From an uncultured Mollicutes bacterium (GTDB lineage: Bacteria > Bacillota_I > Bacilli_A > RFN20 > CAG-288): 64,000 bases of DNA. Positions 3,338 to 54,250 of this stretch are shown in pieces. Each line of letters starts with the position of its first letter. The stretch's first letter is position 1. A model generated the notes under the pieces. That model was not told the origin of the DNA. It did not search any database and saw nothing but the letters and a program-made list of their open reading frames with translations. The position numbers were made by a program, and so were the translations under genes. The stretch spans positions 64,926 through 128,925 of the forward strand of contig UQDS01000002.1 of NCBI GenBank assembly GCA_900539865.1. The letters are read 5' to 3'.

Positions 3338-3375
3338 AAATAAAAAGAAGGTGGAAAAACCACCTTCTTTTTTAG
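3338..3375. terminator. bidirectional rho-independent terminator between the antiporter and RNase genes
   Basis: Hairpin GAAGGTGG-aaaaa-CCACCTTC with an A-run upstream and a T-run downstream. Confidence 0.7.
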
Positions 3376-3418: not shown

Positions 3419-4486
3419 TTAGAAATTGCGTTCGACAACAGAAGGATAAGGAGTTTTGTATTTTCCGGTTTCATCGTATTCATCAGCACCACCGGCAATA
3501 TTTCCAAACCACTCTCCCCATCCGCCTTCATAGTTGAGATATTCTTGGAAGTCTCTGTAATGGTCAAAGGTGTAAAAAACCTTCATTTCAGTTGGTTTAG
3601 AGCAAGGAGTTCCGCCGCCATAAGAATAACGACGTCTATAGACAATACGAGATGAACCTCTGATAATTTTACTTCCGTTGTTATAGGGGCCTGTTCTATA
3701 GTTGCCTGAGTACTCGAAGCTACCTGTCGTACCGATATCCATTTCATAATAGGAGTATTTTGAAGGATCTGGAAGTTCAGGTTCTGTGGGATACTGACTC
3801 ACATCGTTGCTGTAATAATTGTTGTTGACACGAAGATATTTGCCCCACGGGCTGGCTGTAGGCTTTGCGCTCTTGTTCTTATCATAATTTGCAGGGGCAT
3901 CGCCAAAAGCAAAGACATAAGCAGCAACCTCTTCTAATGTTACATAAGCGCCACCTTTAAATATCGTATTGACCACGTTTCCGTTAACATCGACAATATC
4001 ATAAGATAAACCATCCGCGCTCAATCCGCTCGTGATATTTTTGACGAATTTACCATTTTCTTTCGGCTGATTTTTTGCGATTGTTGGACGCTGTTTTTGT
4101 TCCTCAATGGAGCCAGACATAAAGTGGTGTTGCGTGCGATAATAAGCGTCATTATACGTTGTTGCAGGTTGATAGTTTTTGTAAAACTCATAAGAGCTAA
4201 CTCCAACATAAGGGTCGGTAGTAGGGCCTTGATCTACAGATTCACTATCTGAAACAGGCGGTTCTGTATCTGGAATGGAGGGTTTTGTTTCAGGAAGTGT
4301 CGACTCCGTATCGGGTTGAACAGTTTCACTATCCGGATTGATTGTTTCGCTTTGCGGAGTGTCTGTCGGATTCACCGTTACAGGTGGATTTGTTTCCTTT
4401 CCATCACTTCCGAAAATAGGAAAACTGTTGGTACATCCAGTCAATGTCAATAAAATAGCTGGTATGATATATTTTAGTTTATGCAT
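3419..4486 (-). CDS. lipoprotein with C-terminal barnase-family (guanyl-specific, N1/T1-type) ribonuclease domain
   Basis: Signal peptide plus lipobox (LTLTGC). A Pro/Thr/Ser-rich linker follows. The C-terminal approximately 100 aa align with barnase catalytic elements: E-x-DIG (Glu73 equivalent), RIVYRRRY (Arg87 region) and FYTFDHYRDF (His102 equivalent). Confidence 0.65.
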   Translation of the reverse strand: MHKLKYIIPAILLTLTGCTNSFPIFGSDGKETNPPVTVNPTDTPQSETINPDSETVQPDTESTLPETKPSIPDTEPPVSDSESVDQGPTTDPYVGVSSYEFYKNYQPATTYNDAYYRTQHHFMSGSIEEQKQRPTIAKNQPKENGKFVKNITSGLSADGLSYDIVDVNGNVVNTIFKGGAYVTLEEVAAYVFAFGDAPANYDKNKSAKPTASPWGKYLRVNNNYYSNDVSQYPTEPELPDPSKYSYYEMDIGTTGSFEYSGNYRTGPYNNGSKIIRGSSRIVYRRRYSYGGGTPCSKPTEMKVFYTFDHYRDFQEYLNYEGGWGEWFGNIAGGADEYDETGKYKTPYPSVVERNF

Positions 4487-4488
4487 TC

Positions 4489-4830
4489 CTATTTCTCCTC
4501 TCTATGTATACTGTCTTCTTTATTGAAGTGATTTCCATGATAACGTTTATGTAATTTATCTAAATTGTATTGAGCAACTTCTTCTAAAGTAACCCCCAAA
4601 CCGCTTGCTGTTTCCGCAATATACCAAAGGACGTCACCGATTTCTTCCATAAGGTGTTCTTTATCCAATTCATGTCCTTGGAACTTTACTTTTTTAATGA
4701 TGTCGCAGCATTCACCGCTCTCTCCTGCAAGTCCTAAAACCCCATTTAAGACCATATCTTTTTGGCCATCTTCAGAGATGAGATCTCTTGCCTGTCTTTG
4801 ATATTCGTTAAAAGATAATTTTTCTTCCAT
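4489..4830 (-). CDS. MazG-like nucleotide pyrophosphohydrolase (YpjD-type, about 113 aa)
   Basis: EExGE and EEIGDVLWY motifs of the all-alpha NTP pyrophosphatase family. The stop codon abuts the start of the RNase gene at 4486, so the two are probably co-transcribed. Confidence 0.7.
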   Translation of the reverse strand: MEEKLSFNEYQRQARDLISEDGQKDMVLNGVLGLAGESGECCDIIKKVKFQGHELDKEHLMEEIGDVLWYIAETASGLGVTLEEVAQYNLDKLHKRYHGNHFNKEDSIHREEK

Positions 4831-4846
4831 ATTTCAGTTCCTTTCT

Positions 4847-5332
4847 TCAATCAATCGATACAGAGAAATCTTTTCGGATATATTTTTCAATCAACGGATA
4901 GGCTCCGCGTAAAAACATCTCCTTGGGAGGAAGTTGTTCCAATGAATAAAACTTCAATTCGCTAGACTCTCCGTCAGATATAGTTAATTCTTGTTTTGTA
5001 GAGTCAACTTTACTATAAAAATAAAGATCTACATAATGCGTAATGTCACCATTAGGATAACGGAGGATATTCTTTTCTCCAGATACAATGGCAAAAAGAT
5101 GAACCTCATCTAAAGCAAGACCAGTTTCTTCTCTTACTTCCCTTCTTAAACCTTCCTCGACGGTCTCATAAAGATCAATTCCACCGCCAGGAATACAATA
5201 AAGGCCATTGTCTGTTCTCTTCTCTAAAAGTATTTCTTCCTTCTCATTGATAATGAGACAACTAAGCCCAACAGAAAGAATTTCATCATGACCCACTTTC
5301 TTTCGCAAATATGGAATATACTCTAAAGCCAT
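4847..5332 (-). CDS. NUDIX hydrolase
   Basis: Canonical Nudix box GGGIDLYETVEEGLRREVREETGL. Confidence 0.8.
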   Translation of the reverse strand: MALEYIPYLRKKVGHDEILSVGLSCLIINEKEEILLEKRTDNGLYCIPGGGIDLYETVEEGLRREVREETGLALDEVHLFAIVSGEKNILRYPNGDITHYVDLYFYSKVDSTKQELTISDGESSELKFYSLEQLPPKEMFLRGAYPLIEKYIRKDFSVSID

Positions 5333-5393
5333 GAAAATTCTCCTTTCGTAGTATTATATTATATAATAAATATATACATTTATCATTAGTAAA

Positions 5394-5660
5394 ATGAAAG
5401 TGAACAAGTTTGATATTCAAACGGCTATCCGTTATTTAAAAGCAGGATACCGTCTTAAAAGCATCATCGACCGCAAGGAAGAGTGTTTCGTCATGAGAAA
5501 TGACATTGTTTTTGTATTAGCAGAACAAAAAGGAATAAAGCTTGATCTTTATACCTTTGCAGATTTGTACAAAGATTGTGTCTTTGAAAAAGTAGAAGTA
5601 GAAGAGGAAGAAACAGTCGATATAAAGAAAGACGAAGAATATTACTCCTGGCGTCAATAA
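5394..5660 (+). CDS. hypothetical acidic 88-aa protein
   Basis: Complete ORF divergent from the Nudix gene. The C-terminus is acidic. I see no recognisable family. Confidence 0.4.
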   Translation: MKVNKFDIQTAIRYLKAGYRLKSIIDRKEECFVMRNDIVFVLAEQKGIKLDLYTFADLYKDCVFEKVEVEEEETVDIKKDEEYYSWRQ

Positions 5661-5663
5661 AGC

Positions 5664-5691
5664 TTGCATTTTTTTAAATTTTGGCTATAAT
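5664..5691 (+). promoter_or_regulatory. sigma-A type promoter (TTGCAT-16-TATAAT) driving the small ORF
   Basis: TTGCAT at 5664-5669, TATAAT at 5686-5691, 16-nt spacer. Confidence 0.55.
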
Positions 5692-5725
5692 TATAAAGCA
5701 TTGTTTAAAACGAGGTGTATATATT

Positions 5726-5848
5726 ATGGGAAAGAAAAGATTTGAAGCTAGAGGCTTCGCCGATGAATGGGCAGTCAGAAGAAAGAAGAGACTTGCCAAA
5801 CAGGCCAAAGCTCAAGCGAAAGCAAAAGCAGAAAAGGTTTCTGCCTAA
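5726..5848 (+). CDS. unannotated 40-aa highly basic Lys/Ala-rich small protein
   Basis: GAGGTG RBS 8 nt upstream of the ATG. The ORF is below the 60-aa ORF-track cutoff. It is bracketed by a near-consensus promoter and a strong terminator. Confidence 0.4.
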   Translation: MGKKRFEARGFADEWAVRRKKRLAKQAKAQAKAKAEKVSA

Positions 5849-5871
5849 GCATCTGAATACAGATAAATTAA

Positions 5872-5936
5872 CCGCCTGAAACGGCGGTTTTTTTCATTAA
5901 AAAAAGCAGCTAGAAATTCAATCTAGCTGCTTTTTA
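5872..5936. terminator. two rho-independent terminators
   Basis: First hairpin CCGCC-tgaaa-CGGCGG plus T7 on the plus strand. Second hairpin GCAGCTAG-n9-CTAGCTGC, bidirectional, flanked by an A-run and a T-run. The second also terminates the giant minus-strand gene. Confidence 0.75.
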
Positions 5937-5937
5937 T

Positions 5938-8900
5938 TTATTCGTGGAAGAAATAAACGCGATCAGGAGAGTTATTTGTAGAAGTGTCTTTTGATGAGGC
6001 AGAAACCGTAAGGACAGCAACATCATAATTATCGACAATTGTTATGCCGTTATATTTGTATGTTCCGTGAGGCGTTGCCGTGATGTTAGAGATTACATAT
6101 TCCTCTAACTTTTGGATTCTTTCATCTTGTTGAAGCTGATCGATAACGCGATCAAAACGCTGCATTTTTTGTGCTTTCATTGCATCATCATCCGCGGGTA
6201 AATTGATATTTCTATTGAGTTCAAACGAGATGTTGACTGCGATCAAAGAAACAGCTTTGATGTTCATGTTGATGTTCAACTTCTTCAATTCATGATTTTC
6301 ATCATAAACGATAGATGCGGTTAATCCAGCTTTACCATTCGGATCAAATTCAACGAGGTTGTCCTTCATCGAAATCAATTTTCCAAGACAAGCTGTCATC
6401 GTCATCGTTCTGTTTGTTTCGTCATAAGTTGCACTTTGCAAAATAGAGGAATAGTTTCTAGACATCGTCACCGTATTCGCACTGCTTTCTGTTCCATTTC
6501 CTCCGGTGGAATCATTGATAGCACCATAGACATTTCCTAATATGATGTTTCCAACAGAGATTCCGATGGTGGACATACTTTCGATATTGAATACATAAGA
6601 TAAAATGTAGTAGATGATATTATTCAAAAGTTCTTTTTGAGAAAGTTTACGGATTTCAGCAACACTTTCAGAATACTTGATTTGATTAAACCAACTTTCT
6701 TCTTTTCTTTCGTAAGTTCTTGTTCGAATTGAGTATGCCTTATCTTCTAAGACAAAGAATTCAACACCATAGAAACCATTGTTTTTCCAATAATCCGCAT
6801 CGATTGCTTTGCTGTTAAACGACAAATATGCAATTGTCTGCTGATCTTGAATATAGACATAACAATTAAAGAAAGTTTGTAAAGTAGAGAGCTTTAAAGA
6901 AGGCAAGAAATCTAAAGCCATATCGAGCTTAAGATGACCGGAAAGATCAAAGAAATGATGTTCAGTTGTAGTAATCAAACATTGTGTAAGCAAATCAAAT
7001 CCTTTTGAATCAACGAAATTTGCTTTTGTTTCGTCGTTGTAAGGCATTATTGTTGGAAGCTTTGTAGAATCATAAGCAGAGAGCTTAATTGTCGCTTGAA
7101 TGTGGAAAGCAGAGATATGACCATCGGCAGTAACTTCAGCAAGCTTGTTGTTTTCATCAAAACGGAAGGTTAATTTTTCGCTGCGACCCGAATGATCATT
7201 TTCATCTAATAAGTGACTAGAAAATTCTAAATATAATGTCTTGTCAGTGATACGTATCTCTTTGATGTTCTCATTTGTGAGGATAGAGAGATCTTTGTTG
7301 ACAAAGGCATCGATAATAGGCATACCGGTAGAAATAGCTTTTGCTGTATTGAAATAATTTTTCAAATACTGATACAAGAGATTGTTCGGATTGTTTCCTA
7401 CCGATACAACACGATCGTAAATAGAGAAAATATCTCTGTTCTTAAGCAATAAATGCATCGTTGCAGGATCGCTTACTTGTTCATCCAAACTTGTGAACTC
7501 TGCAATTGTCTGACCATTGTTATAGTCGCCGTTATATTCAAAGAGAATGCGATGATCGGTGTAATTTGCATAAGGATCTGTTGTAGTATTTTCTCCTGTA
7601 TTTCCATTCATCGGAACAACATTCGCTTTACCGTCTTTTGGTTGATATAAATGAAGTGTACCGCCAAGTGTAGGAGCACCTTGGATGCTGTTATCTACTT
7701 GACAATCTCCTGTTAAAGCAAGGAGTTCGTTTTCGGTTTGTGTCAAATTGTCCTGTTGATAGACAGAACCATCAAGCTCAAGACCAAAAGTCTTAAAGTC
7801 TGTCGGTAAATCGTAAAAACCTTTAATGATTTGACTGACATTACTCATCTCATAATAAAGAGCTTCTTGCTCGGGGGTAAGTTTAAAGTCAGAGAAAGAA
7901 TCGTTTAAGCTTAAAGCAAAATCGACATTGTAATTTTGATAACTCAAGCCGCGTATGGTTAACCCGGTAAGAGCATCCGCGTTCGTATCTAATTCTAAAG
8001 CGACAGATTTGACTTTATCTTTCAACGACGTTTCTGCCAAAATGTAAGGTAGATTTAATTCAAGGAATAACTTGTTAGGGTCTTGATTGTTTTTGTCAAT
8101 TTTAACGATTTCTTCTAGATGAGTTAACGAATAATCTTCACTCATTTTTCCGAAAAGGTGATCGATAAATGCAGTAGATTGGAAATAAGTCAACAAATCA
8201 TTGACACCATCAAGAGAAGAAGAGATTCCTTGATCGCTCAGAATTTGATTAAGAACTTCATAAACAGAAGCCATGCCTTGATTACTGATTTTTTGGTGCA
8301 TGAATTGATCGAGAGAAAAATAGAGTATGTTCTGTTGATAATTAGCAACAATATTGTGATCTACGCCGCTTAAATTGGTATCGAAGGTAAGTTTGTAAGC
8401 ACCGTAATTTTTGTTTTCGCTTGTGACATCAAACTGAGTCATATCAGCGGATAATTCACCAGAACCAGCAAGGATTTGACCTTTTTCATCCGCGATATTG
8501 ATGTTGTACTTTGTGTTGAATCTTTTTTCGTGAATCAATTTAGAAACAGTATCGAATAAAGGGACAATTCCTTGATAGTCTTTAAATGTGTTTAATTCTT
8601 CTTTTGCTTTATCTAAGCTGATTTTTTCTTCTGGATTTACAGTTGCACTAAAGTCAAAGATATAACTTTGATAATGAAGATTGAGCAATTCGATATAAAA
8701 TCCGTTCGATATATCTGTAGTGACATCTAAAAGTTTTATCGTAAGATCATAATCTCCAAGTCCAAAGAGGTTTGCGTTGATAACGATTTGGACACCATTT
8801 GCTAAGAAATCAAATGAACGCACATGTTCTTTGATTGCATTCAAGTCTCCTTGGCGTATTTTATCTAAATCAATTTTGCTCAAAATAATATCAACAATGT

Positions 8901-10152
8901 CTGTGGTTTGATTAAGGTTGATATTGCTACCATTGGCATTCATCTCATTTGAGATACGGGTGAACAAATCGGCGAGCGTTTGATTGCTCATTTTACCTTT
9001 CAAGAGATTGTTCAATTGTAAGTAGATATTATTGTCGCGATATAATGCATAAACATCATTAGATAAACGCTGATTGACATAATGTTTCAAATCGATTTGA
9101 TAAGTACCTTTGCTCAAATCGCGTTCAACAGTGGACAAATCCCCTTTTAAAGTACCAACAAATTCTTGTTGATGAATGTTATTGGTCTCATCACGGAATT
9201 GAATAGCATAATCAGCTTTAAAGTTTTTCTTATCTACCAGTTTGGCAACAGTGGTACAAAGATTAGATGTTGTTTCTGTCATATCCTGATAAAGTTTCTT
9301 TTGGGCATCACTTAAACCTTCATACAAAGAGGAAGCATTCAAATTAATTCCGAAAGAATCAAAAGAAACACGATAAGTAGAATTAATTTCGATGCCATCA
9401 GCCCCTGTTTTAATACCGATAAGATTGTTATCGTTATCAGAGGAAAGGATGACAATCGGGTTAGCAATTGTCACGGGCAAATTCAACTCGTTCAAGATAT
9501 CTGTAAGATTTAATGTGTAGTCATAACCATAAGAAGTTGGTGTTTGCAAGGCGTTATTTCCTAAATCCATAGCTTTGCCGACAAGATCCTCTATATTTAC
9601 ATTTTCAAAAATTCCACCAATAGTTGATCCAATATCCGGAACTTCGACGCCAACTGCAGTTAATAAAGGCAAAACACCTGCAATTGTCTGCGGTGCATTA
9701 AACGCAAAATTCTTATTCTCGTATGTTAAATAAGCGGTGCTGTTTTCAAAAACAGCATCGATATTTTCATTAATGTTTTGATACTGAACATTAATTTTTG
9801 TTTTTAATTTTAAATCAGCGACGTTCTTACTGCTTAACAAATCAGAAAGATCCATATCAAAATCTGTCAATGACAACTTAATATCACTGACTCCTGTCTG
9901 TGAAAGTGTAAAGTTGAAACTTGGAGCGATTATTTGTTGTGTATTGACAAGCTTTGTGGCTAATTTTGAGAAAGTCGGTTCCTCATCAACGCTTTCTTCT
10001 GGAACAAAAATATCACTTGTTCCATCTCCGCCGTTTTCCTGTGGAATATTAGGCTTAACTGGATCGACAATGTCATGCACTAAATAAGCGCCCGTTCCAC
10101 CTATACCTAACGATAAGAAACTGACTAATGTATAAATGACCCAATTTTTCAT
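5938..10152 (-). CDS. giant (1404 aa) N-terminally membrane-anchored extracellular protein, Asn/Ser-rich, unknown family (large subunit of module B)
   Basis: Single N-terminal TM helix (VIYTLVSFLSLGIGGTGAYLV). The N-terminal approximately 450 aa are paralogous to the 516-aa protein at 11570-13120. Start overlaps the stop of the upstream gene (ATGA). Confidence 0.8.
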   Translation of the reverse strand: MKNWVIYTLVSFLSLGIGGTGAYLVHDIVDPVKPNIPQENGGDGTSDIFVPEESVDEEPTFSKLATKLVNTQQIIAPSFNFTLSQTGVSDIKLSLTDFDMDLSDLLSSKNVADLKLKTKINVQYQNINENIDAVFENSTAYLTYENKNFAFNAPQTIAGVLPLLTAVGVEVPDIGSTIGGIFENVNIEDLVGKAMDLGNNALQTPTSYGYDYTLNLTDILNELNLPVTIANPIVILSSDNDNNLIGIKTGADGIEINSTYRVSFDSFGINLNASSLYEGLSDAQKKLYQDMTETTSNLCTTVAKLVDKKNFKADYAIQFRDETNNIHQQEFVGTLKGDLSTVERDLSKGTYQIDLKHYVNQRLSNDVYALYRDNNIYLQLNNLLKGKMSNQTLADLFTRISNEMNANGSNINLNQTTDIVDIILSKIDLDKIRQGDLNAIKEHVRSFDFLANGVQIVINANLFGLGDYDLTIKLLDVTTDISNGFYIELLNLHYQSYIFDFSATVNPEEKISLDKAKEELNTFKDYQGIVPLFDTVSKLIHEKRFNTKYNINIADEKGQILAGSGELSADMTQFDVTSENKNYGAYKLTFDTNLSGVDHNIVANYQQNILYFSLDQFMHQKISNQGMASVYEVLNQILSDQGISSSLDGVNDLLTYFQSTAFIDHLFGKMSEDYSLTHLEEIVKIDKNNQDPNKLFLELNLPYILAETSLKDKVKSVALELDTNADALTGLTIRGLSYQNYNVDFALSLNDSFSDFKLTPEQEALYYEMSNVSQIIKGFYDLPTDFKTFGLELDGSVYQQDNLTQTENELLALTGDCQVDNSIQGAPTLGGTLHLYQPKDGKANVVPMNGNTGENTTTDPYANYTDHRILFEYNGDYNNGQTIAEFTSLDEQVSDPATMHLLLKNRDIFSIYDRVVSVGNNPNNLLYQYLKNYFNTAKAISTGMPIIDAFVNKDLSILTNENIKEIRITDKTLYLEFSSHLLDENDHSGRSEKLTFRFDENNKLAEVTADGHISAFHIQATIKLSAYDSTKLPTIMPYNDETKANFVDSKGFDLLTQCLITTTEHHFFDLSGHLKLDMALDFLPSLKLSTLQTFFNCYVYIQDQQTIAYLSFNSKAIDADYWKNNGFYGVEFFVLEDKAYSIRTRTYERKEESWFNQIKYSESVAEIRKLSQKELLNNIIYYILSYVFNIESMSTIGISVGNIILGNVYGAINDSTGGNGTESSANTVTMSRNYSSILQSATYDETNRTMTMTACLGKLISMKDNLVEFDPNGKAGLTASIVYDENHELKKLNINMNIKAVSLIAVNISFELNRNINLPADDDAMKAQKMQRFDRVIDQLQQDERIQKLEEYVISNITATPHGTYKYNGITIVDNYDVAVLTVSASSKDTSTNNSPDRVYFFHE

Positions 10153-11246
10153 TCTTCACCTCCTTCTTGTTTCGGAAGTAATTGAAAACCGGCAAATGTC
10201 GGCTCATTTACTAAGGGAAGATTAATGGTCACACCATTGAAGGTGTTGTTATCGCTATAGAAATAATATTGCTTAATTTCAGATGTCGTGTCTGCAGAAA
10301 TGACACCGGTGTCAGCATCATAACGGTCCATAAAGTTAGAAGATAGTGGATTAAGTTGAGCATCAAAATCAAATGTTAAAACACATTCCGAAAACTTTGG
10401 ACGACGCGCTAAATCACCAGTTGATTTCATTTGCACTGCATAGTAAGAAACAGAATAAGGTTTTCCAATTACATCTAAATCGATAGTTACCTTATATCCT
10501 TCTTCTACTTTTTCAACAGACGTTTTACTGTTCTCACCCTGTGGTTTCACAGTGTCTTTGGTGAGATTATATATCAAAGCCCCATTGCGAACAAATTTTT
10601 GTTTTTCTTGGCTTTGTTCATATTCTTCTTTATCAAAACTAAGAAACTTCTCTGGGATAGGGTTATCATTATCCGCGTCAGAAGAGACACAAAAATAATT
10701 TCCAGTGTTAAGTTTTCCGTAAGTTTGGATAAAACTATCATACGTGTATTCTTTGACTTTCGTTTTTGCCCAATCCGTTGCGCGAGACGCCTCATATCCA
10801 TGGATGACTTTATTCTGTCTATCCTCATAATAACGATCGGCTGCATGGACAAAACTTGAATCAGACTCTTTCTGATGGAAGAAGCCTTCGGGGGTATTAT
10901 AAGTTGTGCTTATAATTGTTTGATTTACTTTTGTAAATCCGGCGCTTGCTAGAGCGTTGCCTTGACCAACAACAAGTGAATATTTTTTGGATGTAAAAAT
11001 ATCAAAGGCATAATTAACAATATCGTGTGGTGGAATTGTAGAAACTAAAGTGTCATTTTTTAACGCCTCTTCCACCAATTTATTACGATGGGCGATAGAT
11101 CCAAGAGAAGATCCTCCCGCCGGCCCAGCAATAACTTCATCAGGAGCTTTGTTGAAAATATCATATAAATAGTAGCCGGCACCACTGCCAATCAAAAGGA
11201 AGAGAACCGAAAGAGAGCTGATGGTGATCACAAACTTTTTATCCAT
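10149..11246 (-). CDS. membrane-anchored extracellular protein, unknown family (small subunit of module B)
   Basis: N-terminal TM helix. Core block IVGQGNALASAGF...YNTPEGFFHQKESDSSFVHAADRYYE is clearly paralogous to the protein at 13117-14352. Confidence 0.8.
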   Translation of the reverse strand: MDKKFVITISSLSVLFLLIGSGAGYYLYDIFNKAPDEVIAGPAGGSSLGSIAHRNKLVEEALKNDTLVSTIPPHDIVNYAFDIFTSKKYSLVVGQGNALASAGFTKVNQTIISTTYNTPEGFFHQKESDSSFVHAADRYYEDRQNKVIHGYEASRATDWAKTKVKEYTYDSFIQTYGKLNTGNYFCVSSDADNDNPIPEKFLSFDKEEYEQSQEKQKFVRNGALIYNLTKDTVKPQGENSKTSVEKVEEGYKVTIDLDVIGKPYSVSYYAVQMKSTGDLARRPKFSECVLTFDFDAQLNPLSSNFMDRYDADTGVISADTTSEIKQYYFYSDNNTFNGVTINLPLVNEPTFAGFQLLPKQEGGEE

Positions 11247-11569
11247 AATATTTTCTGTTTTCTTTCTATTTTTCTATATCAATAAATAGTTAAAACATAT
11301 GTTTAACTATAAATTTAAGAATATATGAGAATTTCTATTTGGTCAAATGTTTCATAAGCAAACTATCATTTTTTTATTCTATTTTGATATTTTGTTATAT
11401 AATTTTTTACTTTTTGCAAAAAATTCTTACAAATAATAGATGTTTCAAAGAAAATGAACACTTACAGAATTTAAAACTTGTCCAATTTTCATTTTTTTAG
11501 GTTTTTTCTGTCACGATAAAAAACATGACAATGAAATTGATTCTTAACGACAAGCCTCATACAAAATTG

Positions 11570-13120
11570 TTAAAAGCGAGACAATTCATCTTCTGTTTTA
11601 GACAACACAATTTTATCTACAGGGTCAAGAATATAAACAGTCTTGCGAGTATCTTTTTGAGCAGTTATACGATTAACAGTGATTTTCATTTTAGGATTTT
11701 CAGCAGTTCCTTCTCTTTCGAGAATTATCGTAAATTCCAAATCACCGAGATTCATGTTTTTAGTATCAAATTGCAGTAAAATTGAATTTTGAGTGTACTG
11801 AACCTGTGAAATAGACGCTTTATAAAGGAGATACAAATCCTCAAAAATACGTTTGATATCGCCACTAGCAAAATCAATTTTATCTAAAATACCACCAGAT
11901 TGCGTTGATTCTTTTCCAAAAATACCACCTATGATTTCAATAATTTTATGAATGTTTTCACTCAATTTACCAATGTTGAGTTTGAAATGAAGCCAATCAT
12001 TATGGCTAAAATAAAGCATTTCTTGACGATATAAAGCATAAATATTTTTTGTATTCTTTCCCTCAACACTTTCATCGGCAGTTATTTCAAAAACACCGGT
12101 ATCCAAGTTATTGCCATCCGCAGATAAATCTCCTTTAATTGTACCGATTGTTTCTTTCTTTTTTAACGTGTCCGAAACATCAAAAGATTCGCTGACAGAA
12201 GAAAAAGAGATTTCAAAATTTTTAGACTCTAACAATTGCGTAATAATCGTAAACACATGACTGTTAAATTCTGTCATATCAACATATTTTGATGTCTCGT
12301 CTTCCGATAGAGGCACATATGCGGATTCATAAATAGGAGTGAAATCACAGTTTACTTTCACTTGATAGAGATTGTTGATGCTTATACCATCATCGATGGT
12401 ATGAACGGCGGCCAAATTGAAATCAAGATCAGTTAAAATTTCTAATTTGAAATTTGAAAAAGGAAGTTGTAGTACATTTGAATAATAAGTAAAATCGATC
12501 AAAAAAGAATAGCTATTTTCGGTTTTCGTCTCTATGACAAACTCTTCTAACATTTCTAAGTTGGAAATGATTTCATCTACTGTGATTTTAGAAATAAGGT
12601 TTTCTATTAGAGTTGGATTAGGAAGAGGAATTCCAACAGCAGTTAATATGGGAAGTATAGAATCAATTGTTTCTGAAGTTTTCGTGCAAATGTAATTTGA
12701 TTCATTAGAAAAGTATAAAAACTCATTTTGTGAGGCAAAGTTAAAGGACTCATCAACAACATCGTTGCTGATGTGAAAAGTTCCTTTCGCCTGTGGCGCT
12801 TTTAATTGAAATAGTGGTTCGAGATTGATATCCAAATCAGAAAAAGTAAATTCGAAATCTTCATTTTCATTATTACTCAAAGTAACTTTAGAGGACTCTG
12901 ACTTCAGTTGTTGCATCGTCAAAGCTTTATTGATAAACTTCCCAAAATTAGATTGCACGGTTCCACTTTCCCTTGGAACAAAGCCCTCCATTCCTGTTTG
13001 GTCTGAAGGAAGTGAGTCCCCTTGTTTTCTTTCAACTATATCGATTGCTACATAAGATCCCACTCCGCTTAATAAAAGAGTAGAAGCGCTGATGATTGCA
13101 TACAAAATACTACGTTTCAT
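11570..13120 (-). CDS. membrane-anchored extracellular protein, 516 aa (large subunit of module A)
   Basis: N-terminal TM helix. Shared blocks with the 1404-aa protein, for example ILPILTAVGIPLP versus VLPLLTAVGVEVP. Start overlaps the stop of the upstream gene. Confidence 0.8.
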   Translation of the reverse strand: MKRSILYAIISASTLLLSGVGSYVAIDIVERKQGDSLPSDQTGMEGFVPRESGTVQSNFGKFINKALTMQQLKSESSKVTLSNNENEDFEFTFSDLDINLEPLFQLKAPQAKGTFHISNDVVDESFNFASQNEFLYFSNESNYICTKTSETIDSILPILTAVGIPLPNPTLIENLISKITVDEIISNLEMLEEFVIETKTENSYSFLIDFTYYSNVLQLPFSNFKLEILTDLDFNLAAVHTIDDGISINNLYQVKVNCDFTPIYESAYVPLSEDETSKYVDMTEFNSHVFTIITQLLESKNFEISFSSVSESFDVSDTLKKKETIGTIKGDLSADGNNLDTGVFEITADESVEGKNTKNIYALYRQEMLYFSHNDWLHFKLNIGKLSENIHKIIEIIGGIFGKESTQSGGILDKIDFASGDIKRIFEDLYLLYKASISQVQYTQNSILLQFDTKNMNLGDLEFTIILEREGTAENPKMKITVNRITAQKDTRKTVYILDPVDKIVLSKTEDELSRF

Positions 13121-14352
13121 CTTTTCACCTCCACATCAATGCCTGATAACAAATCAAAACCCTTAAAATACATCTCGTCAATTTTAGGAATATTCACATC
13201 GACAAAACCATTTCCGTTAACAAACCTTGCATTATTACTTGTGAAGTAATACTGGTCTAAATCACAACTAATATCAGCCATAATAACGCTTTTTAACGCT
13301 TTATATTCATCGTGAAAATGAGAAGAAATTAAATTTAGTTGATTGTCCAAACGGAATGTAAGAATACTCTTTAAATAAGTGGGCAAAGAGGACAAACCGC
13401 CTGTAGATTTCATTTGAACTTGAGAAAAACCTATCCCGTAATTGTTTTGCACATCCATTTCAATTTGTATTTCATATCCGTATTTCGTCGTGTTGAATCT
13501 ATTTGCATCCGAATACTTTAATACAGTATTTTCATCAAGATTATAAATTAATGAACCATTTACTTTATGCTTTGTTTTTTCATTGCTCTGATTGTAAACA
13601 GCTTCATTATCTGTTAAAAACTTTTCTGGTATCGGTCTGTTTTCTTCCGGTAAAGAATCAACGCAATAGTAAATTCCTTTTCCTAATTTTCCAAACGTTT
13701 GTATATAATCGTCATAACTATAAATATGATTTGATGAGGAATTTTTCCAATCTTCCGGTTTTGCATATTCATAAGCTTCAACACTTTTCAACGAAACGTT
13801 TTCGTAATAGCGATCAGCTGTATTTACAAGAGAAGAAGATGATGTTTTTTGATTAAAAAAACCATTTGGTGTGTTATATGTAGCAGCTTGAATTTTTTGA
13901 TCAATTTGGATAGGACCCGTTTTTGCAACAGCGTTTCCTTGTCCAATAATAATGTTGTATTTTGTTTTAGCAAAGTTATCAAAGGCGTAATTTAACAATT
14001 GATACGTTTTTAGAGAATAATCTTCAAGCAATGTTCCTTTTTCTAAGGACTGTTGTATTTGTTGAACATCATAGCCACTATTAGACTCATTTGGTTTTGA
14101 TACGGGTTTGTTATTATTATGGTGTGTTTGAATGTATATCTGATAACCAGAAAAGCAACCTACTAAGGAGAATACAAGCACACAAGCAACACCGCCTAGA
14201 ACGCGGCGTGTAACACTATCATTACGGCGCTTCACGCCGTTTTGATCTTCGATCTGTAGTTGGGTTTCTTCGAGTCTTACCTCTTTCTGAGAATAATTAA
14301 AAAGACCAAAGGTAAGTATTTCGTAATTTCGCTTGTTTTTATTTGGTTCCAT
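13117..14352 (-). CDS. membrane-anchored extracellular protein, 411 aa (small subunit of module A)
   Basis: TM helix near residues 50-70. Paralog of the protein at 10149-11246. Confidence 0.8.
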   Translation of the reverse strand: MEPNKNKRNYEILTFGLFNYSQKEVRLEETQLQIEDQNGVKRRNDSVTRRVLGGVACVLVFSLVGCFSGYQIYIQTHHNNNKPVSKPNESNSGYDVQQIQQSLEKGTLLEDYSLKTYQLLNYAFDNFAKTKYNIIIGQGNAVAKTGPIQIDQKIQAATYNTPNGFFNQKTSSSSLVNTADRYYENVSLKSVEAYEYAKPEDWKNSSSNHIYSYDDYIQTFGKLGKGIYYCVDSLPEENRPIPEKFLTDNEAVYNQSNEKTKHKVNGSLIYNLDENTVLKYSDANRFNTTKYGYEIQIEMDVQNNYGIGFSQVQMKSTGGLSSLPTYLKSILTFRLDNQLNLISSHFHDEYKALKSVIMADISCDLDQYYFTSNNARFVNGNGFVDVNIPKIDEMYFKGFDLLSGIDVEVKR

Positions 14353-20711: not shown

Positions 20712-21857
20712 ATGTTAGAAAACATTACATACAAATATAGAATTTATCTAACCGAAGACCAAAAGAAAACATTTACAAAAATCTCAAATGCCGAAACGAA
20801 CCTTATCAACCTTGTTTTGCAAAAAATAGACCGATCAAAATTCAACTATCCAAGTGTCAACGATCTCTTTTTTTACTTAGGAAAAGTAAGAAAAGAAGGA
20901 CATGCTGATATTTTTAATGATCTCTATTCATCGACTATTCCGTTATTAATCAGAAGATTAGCAATGGGAATTAATATCTGTAAGAAAAACAACGTTCCTT
21001 TCCCCATGCCAAAAAATCCTAAAGATTATGTAAGTTCAATCATCTTCAATCCGCAAATAGATAGAATACAAATGGTAAGTCGCAAAAAGATTCGGGCGAT
21101 TTTAAACATTAAAAAATTCGGTAATATCAAACTTGTTTTTCATCGACCATTTCCAAAAAACAGCACTTGCATAGCAACCATAATAAAAAAATTTCCTAAT
21201 GATCAGTTTTATATTTTCTTTGTTTTACAAGGCTCTTTTGGAAAAGAAAAAAATTATGAGTATAAATCCTATGATAAAACTATCGGCTTAGACTTCTCGT
21301 TAAAAAACTTTTTTGTTTCTACAGACCCAAAAATAATACCAAATATGAACTTATTAACTCCAAATAGAGAAGAACTAAAACTAATCAAGACAAGACAAAA
21401 CAATCTTATGAGAGAAAACAAATACTCTAAGAATCACGAGCGTGCACACATACTATATTCAAAATTAGTAACGAAATTAAAATATCGAAGAATTCAAGAA
21501 TACTACAGACTAATTGATGAAATACTCAAAAAGTACGACGTTATAGCTGTAGAAACATTAAAAATGGAAAAAATGAAACAAAACACTCGTTTTTCCAACA
21601 GAGTTCTTCAATTAGGCTATATTGAATTTTTGAAGCTCTTAACATACAAAGCCGAATTAGAAGGAAAGCATGTAGTCAAAATTTCCCCTTGGTATCCCTC
21701 ATCACAAATTTGCTCAGTTTGCGAATATAAGAATAACAATTTAAAAATTTATGATAAAACCTGGATTTGTCCTAAATGTCATTCATTTCATGTAAGAGAT
21801 GAAAATGCAGCTTTTAACATAAAAAAAGAAGGAAATAGAGTTTACAATCTGAATTAA
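20712..21857 (+). mobile_element. tnpB: IS200/IS605-family accessory gene tnpB (OrfB, RNA-guided endonuclease), solo with no tnpA
   Basis: 381 aa. RuvC-I (IGLDFS), RuvC-II (IAVETLKME), C-terminal zinc finger CSVC...CPKC and RuvC-III (RDENAAFNI). About 280 bp of non-coding sequence follows, as expected for the right end and its omega RNA. Confidence 0.8.
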
Positions 21858-26363: not shown

Positions 26364-27974
26364 TTATCCAAAATCTGCAGCGTGGAAAGTATCTGTATTA
26401 TTTGCTTGCTTATAAAGATCAATGAATTTAACTAAACAATCAAACATATAAATAGTTGAGCCTTGATTTTTATCTAATTCAAACTGTTCATATTGATTTA
26501 ATCCATACCTTTCCCAGTAAGTTCCTTCGGAAACAAAATCAATTGTAACAACATCATAAGTTTGACGAGAACTGAAAGAAATATCATTTTCTATATAATA
26601 TGCGTAGAATTTTGTCGAGTGATTATCATTCACTGTTCCGATTAGATTAGCCAATTTAATTCCTGGTACATTTTTAATTACTTTTACTTTATTATCAAAT
26701 GGCGACGTTTTAAAAAGTAACTCTTTAGTTAAACTTCCAGAGGGAAGGTCAGAACGAATACCACTTAAATTATGTAAGCCAATAATTTTGTTTTCGCCCT
26801 TCCAGCCATTATCTACAGCAACATCATGTAAAGCCATCGGAACGAAGCGATTTAATTCTTCATAACGATTGAATTCGCCATCTAATTTACACAATTCTGT
26901 TGTTCCATCAAATTTAGATTTTGCTTCATCAATCGTATGAATCATATCCTGATTTAAATTTTCTTCTGGAGTGTTATGGTATTTTCCATAACAAGACTCA
27001 TAACGATATGAAATTGTTTTCTTTGTTTCGACATCAATTTTGATTTTACAATAGCCACGTGAATTACTTCCACCTTGAACATAAGGTATGGAATTAGGAA
27101 GAAGTTGAGCTTCAAATTGATGAGTGTGCGCACCAAACATCGCCTGAATTTCATCTATTGAAGTGCTATAGGCTACATTGTATAAGAAACCCTCGGCTGA
27201 ATCATGACAACCTAAAATAACTAAATCACATCCTTGTTGTTTTAATTTCTTTGCTTCATTTGTAATCAACTTAATATCATCACTAAAGGAATACCCTGCC
27301 AGCTGAGAAGCCGCTATAGAAGATTCTTCACCGGGACCCATAGCCCCAATAATACCGACTTTAATTCCTCCTTTTTCTACAATTACAGAAGGATCGGCAA
27401 GATTAGTTGCATACTGTCCTTTATCATTGAAAATATTGATTCCTAAAAAGGGGAACTTTGCTGCCTGCTTCTGAATTTCGATATTTTCAATTCCCCAATC
27501 AAATTCGTGATTGCCTAAAACAAAAGCATCAATTTTCATCTGTTCAAGAAGAACATTTGTTAATCTTTTATCTTCGTGAGCAAGATATCCACCCTGCCAT
27601 GCATCACCACAATTAATAATAATGCTAGTTTCAGGATCATAGTCTACATCATGGCGAATAGCATAATCTAATTTAGCTAAACCTAGCTCTCCATGATATG
27701 GAGATTCAACCAACGAGCCATGAACATCATTGAATGAAAAAATAGTGATCTCTTTTTGTTTTCCTTCTTGATGACTTTCCTCAATAGATGGATTAGTATC
27801 GCTAGTATCTGTTTGGTTTGTATCACTGAAAACGGAATCTTGTCCATCGGTAGATTGCTGGTTAGAATCGGATGTTATAGTTCCCGTAGTTCCGCTATCA
27901 GTAGAAGGAGCTTCACAACCGACTAGAATAAAACTAAATAAAGAGATTAAAGCGGCTGGCCATGTTTTTTTCAT
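26364..27974 (-). CDS. lipoprotein, bifunctional metallophosphatase / 5'-nucleotidase
   Basis: Lipobox LVGC. Calcineurin-like motifs (DVHG, GDAWQGG, GNHEFD) plus a C-terminal 5'-nucleotidase domain. Confidence 0.75.
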   Translation of the reverse strand: MKKTWPAALISLFSFILVGCEAPSTDSGTTGTITSDSNQQSTDGQDSVFSDTNQTDTSDTNPSIEESHQEGKQKEITIFSFNDVHGSLVESPYHGELGLAKLDYAIRHDVDYDPETSIIINCGDAWQGGYLAHEDKRLTNVLLEQMKIDAFVLGNHEFDWGIENIEIQKQAAKFPFLGINIFNDKGQYATNLADPSVIVEKGGIKVGIIGAMGPGEESSIAASQLAGYSFSDDIKLITNEAKKLKQQGCDLVILGCHDSAEGFLYNVAYSTSIDEIQAMFGAHTHQFEAQLLPNSIPYVQGGSNSRGYCKIKIDVETKKTISYRYESCYGKYHNTPEENLNQDMIHTIDEAKSKFDGTTELCKLDGEFNRYEELNRFVPMALHDVAVDNGWKGENKIIGLHNLSGIRSDLPSGSLTKELLFKTSPFDNKVKVIKNVPGIKLANLIGTVNDNHSTKFYAYYIENDISFSSRQTYDVVTIDFVSEGTYWERYGLNQYEQFELDKNQGSTIYMFDCLVKFIDLYKQANNTDTFHAADFG

Positions 27975-43567: not shown

Positions 43568-44509
43568 TTAATAATTTCCCCAAACTTTCTTCTCTAAACC
43601 AGGAAAATCGACATATGGATTGCGGTTGTTTTGAAAACTATATACCGCATTATTGCGGTCGATTTCTTTTTGAGAAACAGGATCTTCTTCTGCCCACTTG
43701 AGATAAAGGTTGATCGCCCACTTCGATAAAGAAGGATAGGTGTTTCTAGCAAAACAGGCATAGTTCTCCATACTGCTCATCTTGTCTTCATAACAAGTGA
43801 CAAAATAGAAATAGATTCTTGCAAAATCGCCTTTATATTCATCGATAGGCTCAAAAGCTTTACCTGAATAACCTGATGCTGTACTTGTACCAAGCATACT
43901 ACCATTGGAGCTGGTATAAGTCGGATTACTCACTTCTGCGTGCGGGTAATTGCTACGCATACCATTCACTTTTCCATCGGTTGGAACCACGTGGAAGGCA
44001 TCGCTTCTCATCGGAGATCTCTTGTTAAACACACTCTGCGGAATGGTATGTTCTCTATTATAACAATCGCCTTCTTGTGAATAGTTTCCACAAGTTCCGC
44101 TGCCGTAATAAAACTTTTTGTTGGAATACATATCCCAGACAGTTCCATCAGGACGAATGTCACTCTTTTTATACACGTTATATAATCCGCTATAACCAAC
44201 ATCCGTATGTTTGCTAATCAATTTAAATAAATCTGTTTTAAGTGCAGCACCTGTCAAAGAAAAGTCTACCTTATTGCGATAATATTCCGGAATGTCTTCC
44301 ATGGGTTCACTGGGCTTTTCTGTGCTGACAGAAGAATCCGGTTTAACAGACGAAACAGAACCCTCTGTATCACTTTCGCTATTTGGTGCAGTCGTAGTCA
44401 CGGAATCTTGCGTTGATTCTGTAGGCTTGTCACTCGGAAGGTTTGTATTCCCACCGCAAGAAATCAACGTCAACGAAGCTAAGACTGCAAACAACAACAC
44501 TCTTTTCAT
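43568..44509 (-). CDS. lipoprotein, extracellular endonuclease I (EndA/Vvn family DNA/RNA non-specific nuclease)
   Basis: Lipobox LISCGG. Ser/Thr-rich linker. CYNREHTIP and HVVPTDGKVNGMRSNYP motifs. GGGGGT RBS before MKRVLL. Confidence 0.7.
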   Translation of the reverse strand: MKRVLLFAVLASLTLISCGGNTNLPSDKPTESTQDSVTTTAPNSESDTEGSVSSVKPDSSVSTEKPSEPMEDIPEYYRNKVDFSLTGAALKTDLFKLISKHTDVGYSGLYNVYKKSDIRPDGTVWDMYSNKKFYYGSGTCGNYSQEGDCYNREHTIPQSVFNKRSPMRSDAFHVVPTDGKVNGMRSNYPHAEVSNPTYTSSNGSMLGTSTASGYSGKAFEPIDEYKGDFARIYFYFVTCYEDKMSSMENYACFARNTYPSLSKWAINLYLKWAEEDPVSQKEIDRNNAVYSFQNNRNPYVDFPGLEKKVWGNY

Positions 44510-44605
44510 AATTACCCCCATAAAATCATTAAACGATATTATAATCTTTTCTTTCCATTTTTTCATCATGTATTTATAATAGATGAGGAAAGACCGAGGT
44601 AAATT

Positions 44606-52909: not shown

Positions 52910-54250
52910 ATGGACATTATCAGCATTATCGAAAAGAAGAAACACGGAGAAGCTCTCACACAAGAGGAAATCCAATATTGGATTAAAGGGCTTTGTGCCG
53001 GCACGATCAAAGACTATCAATCTTCTGCTCTCTTAATGGCGATTTGCCTCAAAGGCATGAACAAAGAAGAGACTTTCAATTTGACCGAAAGCATGATGAA
53101 CTCTGGTGAAATTATCAATTTAAGCAAAATACCCGGAATCAAATGTGACAAGCACTCCACCGGTGGTGTCGGAGATAAGACTTCTTTAGCTCTTTGCCCA
53201 ATGATTGCTGCTTTAGGTGTAAAGGTCGCTAAGATGTCTGGAAGAGGTTTGGGCTTTACCGGAGGCACTTTAGACAAATTAGAGTCCATTCCTGGTATGA
53301 CTGTTGTCATTCCCGGCAAACAATTTATTGATGACGTTACCAAAAACGGTATGTCCATTATCGGGCAAAGCAAAGATATCGATCCTGCCGATAAAAAACT
53401 TTACGCTTTACGCGATGTCACAGGAACGGTTGACAGCATGCCTTTAATTGCCTCTTCTATTATGAGCAAGAAATTAGCAAGTGGATGCGACTGCATTTTA
53501 TTAGATGTCAAATACGGTAGTGGCGCATTCATGAAAACAAAGGAAGATGCGGAAAATTTAGCAATGCTTATGGTCGAAATCGGCACTCACTTCGGACGTG
53601 ATGTGCGCGCTGAAATCACCAGCATGAACCAACCTTTAGGTTTAGCAGTCGGCAACATTCTCGAAGTAAAAGAGGCGATCGATACTCTCCATGGTAATGG
53701 TCCTAAAGACTTTACTGATCTTTGCTATTCTTCTGGCGCTACAATTCTCCTTCAAGCCGGTCTTTATAAAGATAGAGCAAAAGCGATTCAGGCCTTAAAA
53801 GGTGTTGTTGAAGATGGTCGCGCTTTCCAAGTGTTCCGTAAATTTGTCAAAGCACAAGGCGGAGATGTCTCTTATGTTGAACATCCTGAGAAATTCCCTA
53901 CAGCGCTTTATACTATTCCTGTTCGCTCAGTAAAAAGCGGTTATATTAAGGCCATCAACACAATGGAAATTGGTCTTACAAGCATGAAACTTGGTGCAGG
54001 TCGTGAGACTACTGAAGATATCATTGATCCGGCAGCAGGTATCATCTTAAACAAGAAAGTCGGTGACAAAGTCAACAAAGGCGATTTGCTTTTAACTATG
54101 TATTCCGAACGCCCAAATATGAACAATCTTGTCTCCGATGTCCTTAACTATTTTGACTTCTCTGATGTGGAAGTTGAAGTTCCCCACGTCATTGAAGAAT
54201 TGATTTCTTACAACAAACAAACAAAAAGATTTATCATAGAGAAAGAATAA
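52910..54250 (+). CDS. pdp: pyrimidine-nucleoside phosphorylase
   Basis: Glycosyltransferase family 3 fold with the HSTGGVGDKTSL motif. Confidence 0.85.
   Translation: MDIISIIEKKKHGEALTQEEIQYWIKGLCAGTIKDYQSSALLMAICLKGMNKEETFNLTESMMNSGEIINLSKIPGIKCDKHSTGGVGDKTSLALCPMIAALGVKVAKMSGRGLGFTGGTLDKLESIPGMTVVIPGKQFIDDVTKNGMSIIGQSKDIDPADKKLYALRDVTGTVDSMPLIASSIMSKKLASGCDCILLDVKYGSGAFMKTKEDAENLAMLMVEIGTHFGRDVRAEITSMNQPLGLAVGNILEVKEAIDTLHGNGPKDFTDLCYSSGATILLQAGLYKDRAKAIQALKGVVEDGRAFQVFRKFVKAQGGDVSYVEHPEKFPTALYTIPVRSVKSGYIKAINTMEIGLTSMKLGAGRETTEDIIDPAAGIILNKKVGDKVNKGDLLLTMYSERPNMNNLVSDVLNYFDFSDVEVEVPHVIEELISYNKQTKRFIIEKE

Follow-up and report, generated by a model that had tools for sequence, protein, structure and literature searches.

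A predicted lipoprotein of the barnase superfamily, without a linked barstar gene, in uncultured gut Bacilli

Barnase and its inhibitor barstar are a textbook model of protein folding and protein-protein recognition and a widely used genetic tool. How would a cell handle a barnase-like ribonuclease (RNase) if no inhibitor gene lies beside it, and what would such an enzyme be for? The question is raised by a gene at positions 3419..4486 (minus strand) of the stretch analysed here, a 64,000-nucleotide piece of contig UQDS01000002.1 (assembly GCA_900539865.1, positions 64,926 to 128,925) from an uncultured Mollicutes bacterium, hereafter the window. A reading made from the sequence only had described the product as a barnase-family RNase exported as a lipoprotein and encoded next to a MazG-type and a Nudix hydrolase; it had left three roles open, namely a nutrient-scavenging nuclease, an interbacterial toxin with non-canonical immunity, or a toxin with immunity encoded elsewhere. 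The sequence comparisons described below identify the protein as a true, if divergent, representative of the barnase/N1-T1 superfamily, whose active site is subject to strict purifying selection. It is probably a Sec-exported, lipid-anchored endoribonuclease that scavenges extracellular RNA for gut Bacilli, and not a delivered toxin.

Sequence-to-profile methods are too weak at the distance which separates this family from barnase. The Pfam model PF00545 scores the window protein at 18.5 bits over its full length and at 20.3 bits with the domain alone, and the family consensus at 18.5 bits, under the gathering threshold of 24; it matches 32 of 33 family members, always below threshold (best E 1.7e-4). 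No NCBIfam model matched the protein, and no RNase was found among all PDB sequences by phmmer with the protein or by hmmsearch with the family profile. The relationship emerged from a profile-profile comparison. Aligned with hhalign, a profile of 259 family-domain sequences matches a profile of 117 true PF00545 proteins (115 retrieved homologues plus barnase and RNase Sa) with 97.8% probability (E 1e-12, score 76.5) over barnase residues 2-109, that is, 95-98 aligned columns. An earlier hhalign run, which used a template of three barnase sequences, had given 22.6% probability (E 9.3e-4) in the identical register and is superseded by the richer profiles. An alternative, locally different register, obtained when the hidden Markov model (HMM) of the family domain was compared with single barnase or binase sequences (13.7 bits), was rejected because its invariant residues miss the catalytic positions and conflict with the strands of the structural model.

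In the retained register, the residues of the barnase active site have the following counterparts, counted over the 259 family domains:

Lys27 of barnase: K205, Lys in 219/259 (Arg in a further 12)
Glu60 of barnase: E235, 253/259
Glu73 of barnase: E248, 259/259
Asp75 of barnase: D250, 259/259
Arg83 of barnase: R276, 259/259
Arg87 of barnase: R280, 259/259
His102 of barnase: H309, 258/259
Tyr103 of barnase: Y310, 259/259

The three motifs quoted in the sequence-only reading, YYE248-M-D-I-G, SR280IVYRRRY and TFDH309YRDF, are all found; the catalytic set that it had proposed is intact, and careful alignment retains both the Glu and the His whose possible loss it had wanted checked. In the guanine-recognition loop (barnase Phe56-Glu60), not only is E235 conserved, but position 232 is aromatic in 253/259 domains. 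The AlphaFold model of residues 88-355, computed with 120 sequences, has a mean predicted local distance difference test (pLDDT) value of 88.1 and a predicted template-modelling (pTM) score of 0.89. It shows the secondary-structure order of barnase, a helix followed by five strands, and places E248 on beta2, R280 on beta3 and H309 in the beta4-beta5 loop. A full-length AF2 model based on a 33-sequence alignment was poor (pLDDT 67.6), and its Foldseek comparison with the PDB was uninformative.

The complete protein can be divided into five parts:

4433..4486, minus strand: signal peptide and lipobox, residues 1-18, MHKLKYIIPAILLTLTGC, with Cys18 as the predicted lipidation site
4226..4432, minus strand: linker or stalk rich in Pro, Thr, Ser, Asp and Glu, residues 19-87, disordered according to composition and pLDDT
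3956..4225, minus strand: family-specific N-terminal subdomain, residues 88-177, small alpha+beta, conserved family-wide (pLDDT 88-98)
3539..3955, minus strand: barnase-like catalytic domain, residues 178-316 (hhalign, PF00545 at 20.3 bits, conservation counts)
3422..3538, minus strand: family-specific C-terminal extension, residues 317-355, conserved beyond the barnase-aligned region, with the motif LNYEGGWGxxFGNxxGG

As a lipoprotein signal we accepted a positively charged n-region, a hydrophobic h-region and a lipobox of the form [LVI][ASTVI][GAS]C. The window protein has all three (MHKLK, YIIPAILLT and LTGC, respectively), a canonical lipobox closing MHKLKYIIPAILLTLTGC, and thus carries the export signal that had been claimed for it. 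A lipobox-like N-terminus occurs in 32 of the 33 rows of the family alignment A1, which are all its full-length members, the exception (P0119) being a fragment with a truncated N-terminus. By a regular-expression test, 127 of 150 representatives have it as well; the other 23 include many N-terminal fragments and a few proteins whose lipoboxes fall outside the simple pattern. The RNase is therefore predicted to be located on the cell surface and anchored by lipid. The long Pro/Thr linker is also present as described: its 69 residues include 12 Pro, 11 Thr, 9 Ser, 7 Asp and 7 Glu, its isoelectric point (pI) is 4.1, its pLDDT in the full-length model is below 50, and both its length and its sequence vary in the family.

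The linker is followed by a conserved C-terminal module of 268 aa, whose globular part is acidic (pI 5.7). Its N-terminal subdomain (residues 88-177) has no match in Pfam. The catalytic domain is enlarged by two insertions, of about 15 aa between beta2 and beta3 and of about 13 aa between beta3 and beta4. In the C-terminal extension, there is no variation at L317, N318, Y319, G322, W323, G324, F327, G328, N329, G332 and G333, either in A1 or in the 120-row alignment A4, while E320 and G321 vary in A1.

Homologues of this module form more than 2,250 clusters at 90% identity, none of which has a precomputed Pfam RNase annotation; an exhaustive search gave 406 representatives at 50% identity, of which 214 reach E <= 1e-30. 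The top 150 matches are all family members, with no sequence bridging to the canonical RNases among them. A relative is present in no fewer than 398 GTDB species representatives. The carriers are nearly all uncultured metagenome-assembled genomes (MAGs) from the gut of humans and many animals, labelled as Bacilli, Clostridia/Eubacteriales, Oscillospiraceae, Erysipelotrichaceae or Anaeroplasmataceae. Identity in the domain ranges from 40 to 76% across the family, and in many members, with lengths of 400-1,038 aa, the conserved module forms the C-terminal part. We found no description of a lipoprotein barnase-type RNase, or of a family of this kind, in the searchable literature; the gene family is uncharacterised and is missed by the current Pfam and NCBIfam models. 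Two further features divide the family. The Clostridial members in A1 (P0020-P0118) have two conserved cysteines (in ISGCGG and TDCDP), possibly forming a disulfide, and, at the C-terminus, a conserved tail of about 25 aa with CA as its last residues; the Bacilli subfamily, to which the window protein belongs, lacks both the cysteine pair and the tail. In addition, a contig labelled Alistipes onderdonkii (CAVALL010000014.1, locus L020) carries a Bacilli-type RNase (62% identity) beside a Na+/H+ antiporter of the Bacilli-MAG type, and is probably a mis-binned contig and not an occurrence in Bacteroidota.

Is the missing barstar gene a peculiarity of this locus? The search covered the window and 94 family loci, each with 10 kb on either side: 80 loci from GTDB species representatives (L015-L094) and 14 from metagenome or MAG contigs (L001-L014). 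Among these 14, several are repeat assemblies with the same proteins and some duplicate GTDB loci, so that the set stands for 85 distinct species. PF01337 matched none of the 60 window open reading frames (ORFs) of 70-180 aa. A barstar HMM built from 81 true barstars, which recovered 8/8 known barstar genes at E <= 5e-32 as a positive control, found nothing in the six-frame translation of the window and the 94 loci (1.48 Mb; best E 0.13), nor in the 8.2 kb past the window end on a 99.97%-identical contig. The observation that no barstar lies nearby is thus confirmed and extends to the family (0/94 loci). For canonical small barnases of Clostridial MAGs, the next gene downstream in the same orientation was barstar in 3/3 cases, and set against these, the lack of barstar linkage is a genuine property of the lipoprotein RNase family. 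On the other hand, the premise that a missing neighbour is anomalous in itself has been weakened. In B. amyloliquefaciens no barnase gene lies within 8 kb on either side of barstar, and an operon of RNase and inhibitor is described as unique to balifase, not characteristic of barnase or binase (PMC5021464); since the pair is unlinked in B. amyloliquefaciens, the absence of barstar from a 64-kb window is not anomalous per se.

Two small ORFs upstream of the operon had been named as the nearest candidates for an inhibitor, though lacking barstar motifs, and indeed neither has similarity to the barstar HMM. Both the 88-aa ORF at 5394-5660 (acidic, pI 5.0) and the ORF at 5681-5848 (40 aa from its ATG; 55 aa and pI 10.9 from a TTG start) were rejected as immunity genes, having no barstar, Pfam or PADLOC similarity. 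The smaller one is moreover strongly basic, and the larger co-occurs with the Nudix/MazG block and not with the RNase. When the neighbours of the 94 loci were clustered, no conserved small partner that could provide non-canonical immunity was found, and even the most widespread neighbour recurs at no more than 26 of the 94 loci.

Self-protection would then probably come from export of an unfolded precursor and not from a linked barstar. Alternatively, the RNase could be as described here and be neutralised in the cytoplasm by an inhibitor encoded elsewhere, either an unlinked barstar or an unrelated protein; this concerns self-protection and is compatible with scavenging. The unlinked pair of B. 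amyloliquefaciens (PMC5021464) is a precedent, the active-site residues which contact barstar (barnase K27, R83, R87 and H102) are retained, and the barstar searches covered about 79 kb of the source genome (the window, L001 and L105). The complete lack of linkage over 85 species, where the canonical Clostridial barnases examined are linked in 3/3 cases, argues in the other direction, as do the two insertions, the extra N-terminal subdomain and the acidic charge, all of which change the barstar-binding surface. Overall, we consider an inhibitor at a distance possible, but not likely.

A separate observation concerns barstar in canonical systems. In three Oscillospiraceae MAG contigs (L098, at 4490-5962, L099 and L100), the ORF directly downstream of a canonical barnase encodes 480-490 aa in a single open frame, in which Barstar (PF01337; barstar HMM E 5e-32) is fused to a class I/II aminotransferase domain.

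What role does the enzyme play on the cell surface? The domain fusions within the family help to tell a scavenger from a toxin, and they favour the former. A Pfam scan of 79 long members revealed N-terminal additions of the types Big_2 (32), Big-like (13), OB-fold nucleic-acid-binding (5), Big_3 (3) and Flg_new (2), and no toxin-trafficking or repeat domain (LXG, WXG/WXG100, RHS, filamentous haemagglutinin, PT-HINT) in any of the 79. One of them, P0246, carries Metallophos and 5'-nucleotidase-C together as a unit joined to the module. The best model for this unit is the multifunctional 2',3'-cyclic-nucleotide 2'-phosphodiesterase/3'-nucleotidase/5'-nucleotidase (E 1.5e-41, far under the equivalog cut-off), and its gene is flanked by UPRTase on one side and by a cluster of HD, two DHH-DHHA1 and SurE genes on the other. 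More generally, 32 of the 94 loci have DHH/DHHA1, SurE, thymidine kinase or Xth-like neighbours. The window itself encodes further candidates for a salvage route:

26364..27974, minus strand: lipoprotein of the 2',3'-cyclic-nucleotide phosphodiesterase/3'-/5'-nucleotidase family (Metallophos and 5_nucleotid_C; NF006934, E 4.8e-31, a score far under the equivalog cut-off)
43568..44569, minus strand: lipoprotein Endonuclease I (PF04231, E 2e-81) with a lipobox; the likely start is the internal Met at 44509, MKRVLLFAVLASLTLISC
44606-45310, plus strand: uridine kinase (NF004018, 234 bits vs a cut-off of 180), divergent from the Endonuclease I gene
52910..54250, plus strand: pyrimidine-nucleoside phosphorylase of cytoplasmic salvage (TIGR02644, 574 bits vs a cut-off of 409)

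The nucleotidase (lipobox in FILVGC, then a Ser/Thr linker) is encoded downstream of a CysQ-like gene (27971-28774; 1e-57) and of NrnA (28755-29705; 4.7e-66), all three on the minus strand. Together with Endonuclease I it shares the build of the RNase, that is, a lipobox, a Ser/Thr-rich linker and a hydrolase, and a functional link of both, and of the phosphorylase, to the RNase seems plausible. Taken together, the fusions, the gene contexts and the salvage genes of the window make nutrient scavenging clearly the best supported of the three roles originally proposed.

A route for RNA can be outlined on these grounds. The flexible Pro/Thr-rich stalk would tether the enzyme to the outside of the membrane. 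By analogy with barnase, Glu248 would serve as general base and His309 as general acid, with Arg276, Arg280 and Lys205 stabilising the transition state; Glu235, the equivalent of the guanine-recognising Glu60, would direct cleavage of extracellular RNA probably to positions after G. Such cleavage would be metal-independent and leave 2',3'-cyclic-phosphate or 3'-phosphate ends. The products could be dephosphorylated by the 2',3'-cyclic-phosphodiesterase/nucleotidase lipoprotein encoded in the window, and the nucleosides imported and recycled through uridine kinase, pyrimidine-nucleoside phosphorylase and NrnA, so that RNA would enter a route for scavenging nucleotides and phosphate through this RNase. 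Precedents exist for both nutrients: phosphate starvation induces both binase and balifase (PMC5021464), and membrane or secreted nucleases of Mycoplasma supply nucleic-acid precursors (PMC12115388).

Several observations weigh against this assignment. PF00545 stays under its gathering score in all the members tested, and Foldseek with the model of residues 88-355 gave no significant match in the PDB, the best geometric one being RNase Sa (template-modelling score 0.40-0.42, E about 2). The guanine loop is only partly kept, the equivalents of Asn58 and Arg59 not being conserved. The CpdB-type fusion is known from a single representative, P0246; the 32 loci with salvage neighbours belong to one broad Clostridial clade and are related, not independent, observations; and no salvage-gene neighbourhood immediately surrounds the RNase gene of the window. 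The extent of the barstar search in the source genome, already mentioned, counts on the same side.

A bolder version of the scavenging proposal is that the module of about 270 aa is a self-sufficient, barstar-independent barnase, in which the N-terminal subdomain, the insertions and the C-terminal extension replace the inhibitor, and that it is the founding member of a hitherto undescribed surface RNA-to-nucleoside pathway. Until export, these family-specific elements might keep the active site masked or slow down folding, and they might also provide additional RNA-binding surface. If true, many uncultured gut Bacilli and Clostridia would possess a surface pathway of three lipoproteins, an RNase, an Endonuclease I and a cyclic-phosphodiesterase/nucleotidase. 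We regard this extended proposal as doubtful.

Surface display in gut bacteria of humans and many animals, as predicted here, would also suit a host or community factor, an enzyme degrading regulatory or immunostimulatory extracellular RNA, or RNA of biofilm matrices or of structures resembling neutrophil extracellular traps (NETs), in the gut. Surface nucleases of Mycoplasma have both nutritional and virulence roles (PMC12115388), and degradation of NETs by MnuA is cited in PMC6895004. Neither the sequence nor the context of the RNase contains a specific pointer to host interaction, its fusions and neighbours being nucleotide-catabolic, and such a role would be compatible with scavenging. A primary function of this kind is unlikely.

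Even less probable is an interbacterial or anti-eukaryotic toxin that delivers the barnase-like domain and is countered by non-canonical or unlinked immunity, such as the 88-aa ORF. Barnase-like domains do serve as tips of polymorphic toxins (PMC3482391), and this ORF is acidic and conserved beside the operon in L016. It tracks the Nudix/MazG block, however, and is absent from the RNase-bearing loci L005, L007, L015 and L017-L020. Nor is there, over the 94 loci, any small gene conserved next to the RNase; the trafficking domains are missing from all 79 long members, the lipid anchor would retain the enzyme on the producer cell, and the PADLOC and barstar searches gave no match. Furthermore, the family is conserved and syntenic with housekeeping genes, not polymorphic. 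The interbacterial-toxin option is thus left without any of the hallmarks we tested.

The putative scavenging RNase is encoded as the third and final gene of an operon, the elements of which are:

5358..5386, minus strand: promoter-like site ATGATA-17-TATAAT, 5' of the Nudix gene, putative from its match to the consensus
4847..5332, minus strand: Nudix hydrolase, 161 aa, first gene (PF00293, 70.7 bits vs a cut-off of 21.1)
4489..4830, minus strand: MazG-type nucleoside triphosphate pyrophosphohydrolase, 113 aa, second gene (PF03819, 42.4 bits vs a cut-off of 22)
3419..4486, minus strand: lipoprotein barnase-family RNase, 355 aa, third gene (ORF call)
3342..3372, either strand: bidirectional hairpin resembling an intrinsic terminator, with a 13-bp stem and T-runs on both sides, 47 nt past the RNase stop codon

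The three ORFs are where the sequence-only reading had placed them, all on the minus strand, and its term "translationally adjacent" proved correct: the gaps measure 16 nt between Nudix and MazG and 2 nt between MazG and RNase, and the Shine-Dalgarno sequence of the RNase gene (AGGAG) is embedded in the final MazG codons. Another one, AAAGGAG, lies between the promoter-like site and the Nudix start. The stop codon TGA is in use, which indicates the standard bacterial code. The Nudix box GX5EX7REUXEEXGU is intact and can be read in GGGIDLYETVEEGLRREVREETGL. No signal peptide was found on either hydrolase, so both are predicted to be cytoplasmic.

This "unusual trio" is real as an operon, but its juxtaposition is confined to one lineage. 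Among the 85 species sampled, the trio is limited to this species (L001-L004) and its closest sampled relative, L016, which has an RNase of 65% identity. In the remaining Bacilli relatives (54-62% identity), both hydrolases are missing; Na+/H+ antiporter, peptidase M3 and Hsp33 still follow downstream in synteny, and IspD and PGI take the place upstream. From this distribution, we regard the trio as an operon fusion peculiar to this lineage, not as a conserved module. A dedicated three-part module, for example in defence or nucleotide depletion, would fit the tight packing, the single putative promoter and terminator and a weak match of the Nudix protein to the PADLOC candidate model PDC-S07 (E 4.9e-8), but it is most improbable given this narrow distribution, the separate compartments of the exported RNase and the two hydrolases, and the generic Nudix similarity behind that match, PADLOC finding none for RNase or MazG and thus lending a defence-system reading no support. 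As house-cleaning enzymes that are co-transcribed with the RNase only in this lineage, the two hydrolases may at most sanitise the salvage-derived nucleotide pool; that this pool is fed by salvaged, possibly modified, nucleosides is speculative.

Compared with known systems, the closest proteins are barnase, binase, balifase and RNase Sa (PF00545), whose catalytic domain is homologous. The Glu/His pair, the two Arg and the Lys occupy the same positions, the secondary-structure order in the model is the same, and these enzymes too are exported from a Gram-positive-type cell, as is predicted for the window RNase; the phosphate-starvation response of binase and balifase provides the precedent for extracellular scavenging. 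The differences lie in a sub-threshold Pfam score, two sheet insertions measuring 13-15 aa each, an obligatory N-terminal subdomain of 90 aa and a C-terminal extension of 39 aa. Furthermore, the barnase group is freely secreted, whereas the window RNase is predicted to be lipid-anchored on a long stalk. Barnase is a basic protein, unlike the globular part of the window RNase (pI 5.7), which in addition belongs to a family never linked to barstar in the 94 loci.

With Tox-Barnase/Imm-Barstar and other polymorphic toxins (PMC3482391) the protein shares a BECR-fold domain of the barnase clade at the C-terminus of a longer exported protein. It differs from them in having no adjacent barstar, no trafficking or repeat domains and no cassette polymorphism, and in its predicted anchoring to the producer. 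CpdB/UshA-type 2',3'-cyclic-nucleotide phosphodiesterase/3'-nucleotidases, with CpdB activities described in PMC4905662, would be expected to take the next step on barnase-type products. An enzyme of this type is fused to the module in P0246 and encoded as a lipoprotein in the window, but it is a separate enzyme and in both cases the scores remain far under the equivalog cut-offs. The nearest parallels in function are the MnuA-type lipoprotein nucleases of Mollicutes, which are surface-tethered and presumably supply nucleotide precursors (PMC12115388). A second functional analogy is offered by YhcR of B. subtilis with P0246, which likewise combines Metallophos/5'-nucleotidase, OB-fold and nuclease modules. 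The folds of MnuA and YhcR, of staphylococcal-nuclease or EEP type, are unrelated to that of barnase, and the two are sugar-nonspecific or DNA-acting and metal-dependent. YhcR is a cell-wall-anchored protein with OB-fold, nuclease and 5'-nucleotidase parts. Barnase-type enzymes, in contrast to MnuA and YhcR, are metal-independent and RNA-specific.

A scavenging role is unsurprising for an extracellular RNase; what deserves attention is the size of the family, its invisibility to annotation and its independence from a linked barstar. A family that keeps the barnase active site without linked barstar would show how a potentially lethal RNase is handled in the absence of a dedicated inhibitor, and could supply barstar-insensitive RNase scaffolds. 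For the 398 or more reference species that encode it, the family would point to extracellular RNA as a source of nucleotides and phosphate, and the family assignment would annotate hundreds of "hypothetical lipoproteins" that Pfam and NCBIfam miss.

Some further features of the region were recorded. Directly upstream of the operon, at 5938-14352 (minus strand), four consecutive large ORFs encode proteins of 1404, 365, 516 and 411 aa, each beginning with a transmembrane-like helix and matching nothing in Pfam, NCBIfam or PADLOC. L016 has a conserved counterpart of the 1404-aa protein, to which the 516-aa protein is distantly paralogous (E 1.6e-40); the group looks like a cluster of uncharacterised surface proteins. 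An IS605 OrfB/TnpB-type gene with a Cas12f1-like TNB domain (E 1.7e-20) is found at 20712-21857 (plus strand), and a similar gene occupies the syntenic position in the relative L007 (3725-4873). At the far end of the region, contig L104, from another strain, has an element with phage integrase and Rep_trans inserted just past yqeY (11721-14200). It is not in the window (about 62.6-64 kb) or in L105, which indicates a strain-variable mobile element. Finally, the window encodes an MPN527-family (mycoplasma-type) ECF transporter permease (41835-42554, plus strand) and MreB (61199-62191, plus strand), and the Rnf complex follows just past the window end in L105. Apparently the host belongs to a Bacilli lineage that has a cell wall and some transport genes resembling those of mollicutes.

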